Assembly: GCA_964016885.1 (NCBI GenBank)
Contig: OZ024741.1
Span: forward strand, 287,308,001 to 287,372,000
Direction: 5' to 3'
Source: Eledone cirrhosa
Lineage: Eukaryota
Length of the DNA stretch: 64,000 nt
In this document: piece by piece, positions 55,586-56,949 of the stretch
Position numbering within the stretch: the stretch's first letter is position 1
How the letters are laid out: the number at the start of each line of letters is the position of its first letter
Notes under the pieces: model-generated
Seen by the model: the letters and a program-made list of their open reading frames with translations, nothing else
Told to the model about the DNA's origin: nothing
Database searches by the model: none
Program-made: the position numbers and the translations under genes

Positions 55586-55820
55586 TATATATATATATAT
55601 ATATATATATATATATATATATATATATATATATATAATAGGATATACGTTCCTTCACGCACAAGGCGCCAAGGTACGCATGTATTGTCCAACCAAATGC
55701 CAGTGTGGTTCAATGGCGGGTTAATAAATTAACGAGCCAGAACAAATATAAACAAGGTTTAGCAAATAATGAAAAAGTTTCAAAATAAATTTTAAAAAAT
55801 TGACTTTACCTACTATAGTT

Positions 55821-55904
55821 ACCTTTACCGATCGGTTTCGAATCCCAAAAATAAAACGGAGACCATACGGCCTTCGTTGCAAAGAAAGATTCTCGTCAGA
55901 AGGT
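55821..55904 (-). ncRNA. Type I hammerhead ribozyme, family I
   Basis: Reverse complement of 56683-56766. Confidence 0.9.
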
Positions 55905-56682
55905 TCTTTTCATTCAAAGAATATAAAATTCCTGAATTTAAATCACAAACTAGCGCTATCAAAACTGTTCCTGGGATGAGAGTGGATGATGTAGAAACAG
56001 GTTCATCAAGGGCCGAAGCAAAGATAGAGGCAAAAGGAGGTAGGTCAAACTAGCCACAGCTATTGCTAGCAGCAGTCAGAACGACCAAATTTGTTATCAA
56101 CATTAGTGGAGGTAGTAGTAATAGGATATACGTTCCTTCACGCACAAGGCGCCAAGGTACGCATGTATTGTCCAACCAAATGCCAGTGTGGTTCAATGGT
56201 GGGTTAATAAATTAACGAGCCAGAACAAATATAAACAAGGTTTAGCAAATAATGAAAAAGTTTCAAAATAAATTTAAAAAAAATGACTTTACCTACTATT
56301 TTGAAACTTTACCTACTATTTTGAAACTTTTTCATTATTTGCTAAACCTTGTTTATATTTGTTCTGGCTCGTTAATTTATTAACCCGCCATTGAACCACA
56401 CTGGCATTTGGTTGGACAATACATGCGTACCTTGGCGCCTTGTGCGTGAAAGAACGTATATCCTATTACTACTACCTCCACTAATGTTGAGAACAAATTT
56501 GGTCGTTCTGACTGCTGCTTGCAATAGCTGTGGCTAGTTTGACCTACCTCCTTTTGCCTCTATCTTTGCTTCGGCCCTTGATGAACCTGTTTCTACATCA
56601 TCCACTCTCATCCCAGGAACAGTTTTGATAGCGCTAGTTTGTGATTTAAATTCAGGAATTTTATATTCTTTGAATGAAAAGA

Positions 56683-56766
56683 ACCTTCTGACGAGAATCT
56701 TTCTTTGCAACGAAGGCCGTATGGTCTCCGTTTTATTTTTGGGATTCGAAACCGATCGGTAAAGGT
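56683..56766 (+). ncRNA. Type I hammerhead ribozyme, family I
   Basis: acctt-CTGACGA-gaatc[~43 nt]gattc-GAAAC cgatcg GTA-aaggt. Palindromic stem III ACCGATCGGT. Confidence 0.9.
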
Positions 56767-56949
56767 AACTATAGTAGGTAAAGTCAATTTTTTAAAATTT
56801 ATTTTGAAACTTTTTCATTATTTGCTAAACCTTGTTTATATATATATATATATATATATATATATATATATATATATATATATATATATATATATATATA
56901 TATATATATATATATATATATATATATATATATATACACATACATATCT

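Follow-up and report, generated by a model that had tools for sequence, protein, structure and literature searches.

Retrozymes and PLEs

In the accessible parts of PMC7229834 and of bioRxiv 10.64898/2026.07.22.740005, the non-LTR retrozymes of metazoans are described as non-coding, low-GC tandem units, each provided with one type I hammerhead, which range from monomers to multimers and co-occur with PLEs. Both papers, in the same parts, propose retrozymes as PLE passengers; whether PLEs move them through circular RNAs is stated as open in the available text of PMC7229834. PLEs of the Hydra clade are defined, in the sections available of PMC8557442, by an RWK-like motif, DKT and CxCX5C. According to these sections they target (TA)n, and feature 5' truncation, partial tandems, an inverted 5' copy, a hammerhead and a tail at one end only. 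A drawing there shows such an insertion, with the copy inverted and the tail on one side, and how it forms is stated as open. In PAc (Poseidon, Anolis), as reported in the accessible portion of PMC11167929, reverse transcription starts at two internal sites downstream of the hammerhead, which bound the tail, and ribozyme cleavage is unnecessary. The target is AT-rich, both strands are cut and extended, and the protein is predicted to be a dimer.

The 483-bp repeat analyzed here was found in a window of 64,000 nucleotides from Eledone cirrhosa (assembly GCA_964016885.1, contig OZ024741.1, positions 287,308,001 to 287,372,000 of the forward strand). The repeat shares with metazoan non-LTR retrozymes all the features listed above. 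Its unit measures 483 nt, against ~170-400 nt for the invertebrate retrozyme circles of the published excerpts, and falls inside the 51-972 bp range given in the accessible part of bioRxiv 10.64898/2026.07.22.740005. Stem II is long, unlike that of the retrozymes described in these excerpts, and fixed 3' ends, inverted arms and (TA)n targeting are not mentioned in the available text of either retrozyme paper. Target, truncation, partial tandems, inverted 5' copy, hammerhead and one-sided tail are in common with Hydra-clade PLEs as characterized in the available sections; unlike these, the repeat has no ORF, and its tail measures 110 nt (~90 nt in a neighboring Hydra family) versus the published 30-40 nt. 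Two internal start sites downstream of the hammerhead are predicted here, in agreement with PAc. The repeat family, the 110-nt tail, a quantified rule whereby the two arms of an insertion end one at each site, and the finding of a single haplotype in both arms are new.

The insertion is, with high probability, a recent retrozyme insertion into (TA)n, for which a PLE RT-endonuclease acting in trans likely used a separate RNA site to prime each of the two target strands.

The insertion in the window

Two divergent arms of the 483-bp unit (55636-56841) are located between two (TA)n tracts. Features are listed in Table 1; phases are numbered in the ribozyme sense, phase 1 corresponding to position 56318.

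Table 1. Features of the insertion and of its immediate surroundings (window coordinates)
Feature	Position	Strand	Details
(TA)n target tract, left side	55582..55637	.	TRF period 2, 28 copies
Left arm, 1.37 units	55636..56299	-	664 bp = 483 + 181; inner 5' end at phase 454, full unit, outer 3' end at phase 151 (site B)
Type I hammerhead, left arm	55904-55821	-	motif and stem scan
5'-to-5' junction	56286..56330	.	20-bp templated duplication (period 20, 2.2 copies) and short microhomologies
Right arm, 1.09 units	56317..56841	+	525 bp = 483 + 42; inner 5' end at phase 483, full unit, outer 3' end at phase 41 (site A)
A-B interval, 110 nt	56359..56468	+	end distribution over loci
Type I hammerhead, right arm	56683..56766	+	motif and stem scan; predicted cut after 56761 (phase 444)
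(TA)n target tract, right side	56837..56956	.	common to the repeat and the neighboring Hydra PLE
Decayed autonomous Hydra-clade PLE, separate from the repeat	56954..60294	+	RT and GIY-YIG, broken frames

The overrun of the left arm makes a direct repeat (55636-55816 versus 56119-56299, 98% identical). The right arm is inverted relative to the left, with 99% complementarity, and the two differ at 4 of 525 positions. The original prediction had described a left arm of one full unit plus about 180 bp of re-entry, an inverted right arm starting at another phase and also exceeding one unit, a 20-bp duplication at the fold-back junction, and arms so similar that the event must be recent; measurement bore out each of these points. 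Two cDNA ends were likely put together by end-joining at the junction, and its 20-bp duplication is reminiscent of templated insertions of the polymerase-theta type. The A-B interval is the equivalent of the PLE tail, as this is described in the accessible parts of PMC8557442 and PMC11167929.

A non-coding hammerhead family

A 25-mer of the ribozyme core has 954 exact matches in the genome, versus none for the reversed control, denoting a dispersed tandem family of high copy number. The window unit gave 2119 first-look candidates in the 3.0-Gb assembly, and the pattern made by end A plus (TA) 1343 matches. The analyzed set includes 239 loci: 60 taken in order on one contig by the core 25-mer alone, blind to the ends (60 of the 62 clusters listed); 79 selected through the end-A pattern; 39 through a pattern internal to the B region, to which 2 more loci of the same contig were added; 31 best matches of the window unit, and 28 matches of an older subfamily. 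Repeat fetches of the same place and the segmental duplicates L024 and L025 were left out. The longest stop-to-stop frame inside the unit measures 85 aa and lies on the antisense strand. An RT plus GIY-YIG ORF, which marks autonomous PLEs, is not found within the element. At the sequence level the repeat has the attributes of non-LTR retrozymes, and is classed as a putative non-coding, non-autonomous hammerhead family of that type.

The arms might alternatively be 3' pLTR fragments of an autonomous PLE with its ORF-bearing master outside the sample, in which case the unit would be no independently propagating retrozyme at all. End anatomy is the same as in autonomous PLEs, and rare masters may be missed since the genome matches viewed were the best 40 candidates or the first 100 places. 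Against this, subfamilies 72-100% identical to the window unit have a closed head-to-tail period of 483-487 bp, arrays reach 10 units per arm, and 0/351 arms enter an RT ORF or any common non-unit sequence, so that fragments of a PLE are an improbable source. Fixed ends attached to a Penelope ORF, the observation that the original prediction set against its own reading, were found by half: ends are indeed fixed, but an RT ORF is attached to the arm in 0/239 loci.

Two fixed outer ends, one on each arm

In the 60 end-blind loci, outer (3') ends fall at site A in 51/84 arms, at site B in 27/84 and elsewhere in 6/84, whereas inner (5') ends are scattered over all phases. Across loci, site A maps at phase ~41 and site B at ~149-157, 110 nt apart. 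Entry anywhere on a circle, and hence random arm phases, was implied by the original prediction; 78/84 end-blind arms contradict this, and the randomness expected of copy starts holds for 5' ends only. When all 239 loci are considered, 79 of them picked by their A end, 331/351 arms end at A or B, and TA-rich sequence follows in 296/331.

Two-armed insertions (n = 95) include 81 A+B pairs, one A+A, one B+B and 12 with one off-site end. A+B combinations thus make up 81/83 of the pairs with both ends on site (binomial p 4e-22 versus 50%), and the single B+B pair, an old overlapping hairpin, was probably mis-parsed. Among 80 hold-out loci, fetched after the rule had been seen, 31 A+B and no same-end pairs were counted. 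What was known as an optional tail becomes a near-strict rule, one arm with and one arm without. No statement of this rule was found in the literature searched, which included few subscription papers and in which figure legends imply it loosely. The 483-bp repeat behaves like a PLE insertion in being truncated at its 5' side, carrying an inverted 5' copy and a tail on a single end, and targeting a microsatellite.

Junctions between arms

Of the 81 A+B pairs, 19 have a blunt junction and 41 a junction with an overlap of 1-4 nt, which together account for 60/81. In the twin priming of L1 elements, too, two 3'-OH ends of the target act as primers and the divergent arms are connected through microhomology, but the position of the second primer varies and lies directly against the first arm. 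In the present family, the second site is fixed and arms overlap in phase, their total exceeding one unit in 61/81 pairs. In the histogram of 5' ends there is no evident sign of one arm being blocked, in L1 fashion, where the other starts.

Neither arm is contained in the other in 31/81 A+B pairs, and fold-back template switching, which the original prediction had invoked as the source of the inversion, is therefore not the general cause. The window pair is outside those 31, so for this copy the conclusion is drawn from the family. The same data argue against antisense self-priming as general cause here, a process proposed for PLE inversions in the accessible text of PMC3846280.

The RNA template

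Concordance of polymorphic sites was scored with the homopolymer zone excluded, locus L016 dropped and L123 cut to 5 passes. In the young group (73 insertions) discordant site-pairs were 6/372 (1.6%) arm versus arm and 8/558 between passes in one arm, against 9703/34972 (27.7%) between insertions. Corresponding figures were 2/240, 2/386 and 5822/14908 in the middle group, 81/1506, 49/1677 and 66850/191664 in the old group, where some pairs have discordant arms. Since discordance between arms is far below that between insertions, both arms represent one haplotype, and likely go back to a single RNA molecule or a single source locus; were one haplotype active at a time, matching arms could come from two separate RNAs. 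A rare allele common to both window arms (phase 266) was lost when more loci and other gap settings were used.

Arms longer than 490 nt, and thus extending beyond one unit, are 138/331, which calls for a multimeric or circular template, as originally proposed. At least one ribozyme site is crossed by 273/331 arms, two or more by 91/331. Young full units (n = 42) exhibit 21 patterns, yet insertions are internally uniform, which, like these crossings, leans towards a circular template. On the other side, 5' ends coincide with the cut site (phases 441-446) in 16/331 arms, versus 4.1 expected from a uniform and 5.6 from a local distribution; in the hold-out loci they are 6 versus 1.9 (p 0.013). 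The stop rate does not fall at successive ribozyme encounters (9/280, 6/95, 1/11). Arms that read through intact sites and then stop at the cut site point rather to partly cleaved linear multimers; since the majority of such ends fall 1-4 nt upstream of the cut, the RT may instead have stalled at the core of the ribozyme or where the RNA was ligated. Array length is no proof of rolling, because some arrays (L260, L114, L055) were enlarged by later DNA duplication. Circle and partly cleaved linear multimer are about evenly balanced as templates. The two-armed array L123:2028-7847 (about 10 + 2 units) has a single variant site over 14 passes, and may well be a source array or the product of a rolling RT.

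In the original prediction taken in full, the RT would enter a ~483-nt circRNA at arbitrary phase, roll round and fold back on its own cDNA. Arms exceeding one unit, passage across one or more ribozyme sites, near-identical passes within insertions that differ from each other, and the L123 array all fit such a process, and retrozyme circles are reported from coral, mussel and axolotl in the available parts of PMC7229834. Entry at two fixed sites, one-of-each pairing and the pairs in which fold-back is impossible speak against it; the circle as template is the one part that stands, and is already included in priming by a PLE at two RNA sites, while the scheme as a whole has very little probability. 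An assembly or chimeric-read artefact, which the original prediction had considered for the fold-back, or a later inverted duplication at the DNA level is extremely improbable, although later duplication did enlarge the tandem arrays mentioned above and short-read contigs (four runs, one study) stop short of the junction and are uninformative. Between the window arms there are 4 differences, and each arm has its own end site, fixed in the family; at 55746, a position corresponding to site A, loose (AT)n ends occur in independent contigs, and the same logic recurs with different junctions in 81 loci.

The hammerhead motif

In both arms the core (CUGACGA, GAAA, GUA) is accompanied by three stems, but stem II is lengthened by a hairpin-forming insert of 39 nt, and Rfam did not detect the motif at the gathering threshold or at E<=5. 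The textbook hammerhead attributed to each unit is such, therefore, in core and stems only. Rfam matches to miRNA precursors over 56164-56423 merely reflect the inverted repeat. Stem III is palindromic in the window, and palindromic or nearly so across subfamilies. Stems I and II covary across subfamilies (261 parsed motifs), as denoted by the pairs ACCUU/AAGGU, GCCUU/AAGGC and ACCCU/AGGGU in stem I, GAAUC/GAUUC, GAGUU/GACUC and AAGUC/GACUU in stem II; such compensating changes suggest that the ribozyme is under selection.

The 483-nt monomer folds at -112.6 kcal/mol, with a modest z of -2.27, the ribozyme and the A-B region folded alone give z about -1, and the MFE fold of the isolated hammerhead differs from the full catalytic fold. 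Plant LTR retrozymes are a distinct class, as the motif here is open at stem I (type I), not type III, and no LTR pair flanks a unique interior at the window repeat.

The neighboring PLE and the search for a partner

The PLE to the right of the insertion carries RWR (RWK-like), DKT and CxCX5C, motifs which place it in the Hydra clade; its RT was not recognized by Pfam. Its inverted 5' arm ends at a site B' and its main arm at a site A'. Ends of the family fall at two sites separated by ~90 nt, downstream of a hammerhead-like motif whose core is, in most copies, the non-canonical CAGAAGA, and 8/8 inverted pairs are A'+B' (20 loci plus the window; continuity of the multi-kb arms assumed). Relatives keep open frames of about 713 aa. 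In a third hammerhead family, whose motif is also found in 77-bp units, the ends lie at two sites separated by ~65 nt, and L100, L167 and L252 each have one end of either kind. In this genome the one-of-each rule, obeyed by both families, is therefore a feature of PLE-type integration.

Four Hydra families, the neighbor's and three from L158, L096 and L211, were queried with the unit: no clear homology to their termini, and no match outside the co-located copy, was found. Shuffling gave p 0.03-0.42 over 10 units for the termini of the neighbor, and a resemblance between B ends (TATTA-type motif) is not significant. No autonomous partner emerged from this search. Two apparent associations were discarded. 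The RT upstream of a 71% unit in L124 is separated from it by (TA)n; in L250, a would-be Hydra/retrozyme chimera, ~65 nt matching another repeat intervene, so that nested insertion is equally likely. In one case (L291:554-1143) microhomology links a retrozyme arm to a tandem 77-bp hammerhead array of the same orientation. A very young Hydra family (L158:1372-2750 and L321-L336) has 40/40 scored copies ~100% identical over 521 nt, and is a candidate for supplying active enzyme, although its termini show no homology to the unit. The assignment of the mobilizer to the Hydra clade, made from target and architecture, is a guess.

Model of insertion

According to the mechanism proposed, tandem copies would be transcribed, and a PLE protein supplied in trans, probably dimeric and probably of the Hydra clade, would bind the A-B region and nick both strands of (TA)n. 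One nick would prime cDNA at A, the other at B, and each RT would run back a variable distance across ribozyme junctions, either uncut or re-ligated. The two cDNA ends would then be joined by microhomology end-joining, with the 20-bp templated duplication in the window copy; use of a single nick would produce a single arm. The AT-rich target, double cutting and extension and predicted dimer of PAc match this mechanism, as far as the accessible part of PMC11167929 goes; in vitro, in the same part, PAc showed no strand bias in start site, in contrast to the genomic pairing observed here (81/83), so the one-of-each coupling is putative at the biochemical level.

What links the retrozyme with the insertion signature of PLEs would thus be mechanism and not co-occurrence, with fold-back and self-priming excluded as general cause of inversion. 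The unit would also provide a small, defined substrate of 483 nt with two predicted start sites, usable in vitro. A more specific version, that an asymmetric PLE dimer commits the two strands to the two RNA start sites, and that both RTs read a ligated 483-nt circle for more than one lap, is tentative, and on balance doubtful; if true, the genome would hold hundreds of footprints of a ribozyme circRNA used as target-primed template.

Other elements in the window

A separate PLE-like 3' end (55030-55560) lies just left of the insertion, and includes a minimal hammerhead (55478-55530), 34-nt direct repeats (55148/55279) and a hairpin near 55040-55140. A broken non-LTR RT (Pfam RVT_1), with a nuclease-like region downstream, spans 52266-54226. 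On the minus strand, 47608-47697 contains a further type I hammerhead, whose stem II is again long but whose sequence is unrelated, and 27445-26729 a piece of another Hydra-like RT, with 35% identity to the neighbor. Members of another hammerhead family, located at 2976-3040, 4666-4730, 22160-22224 and 22851-22915, form two divergent inverted pairs, which are probably further PLE-type insertions.
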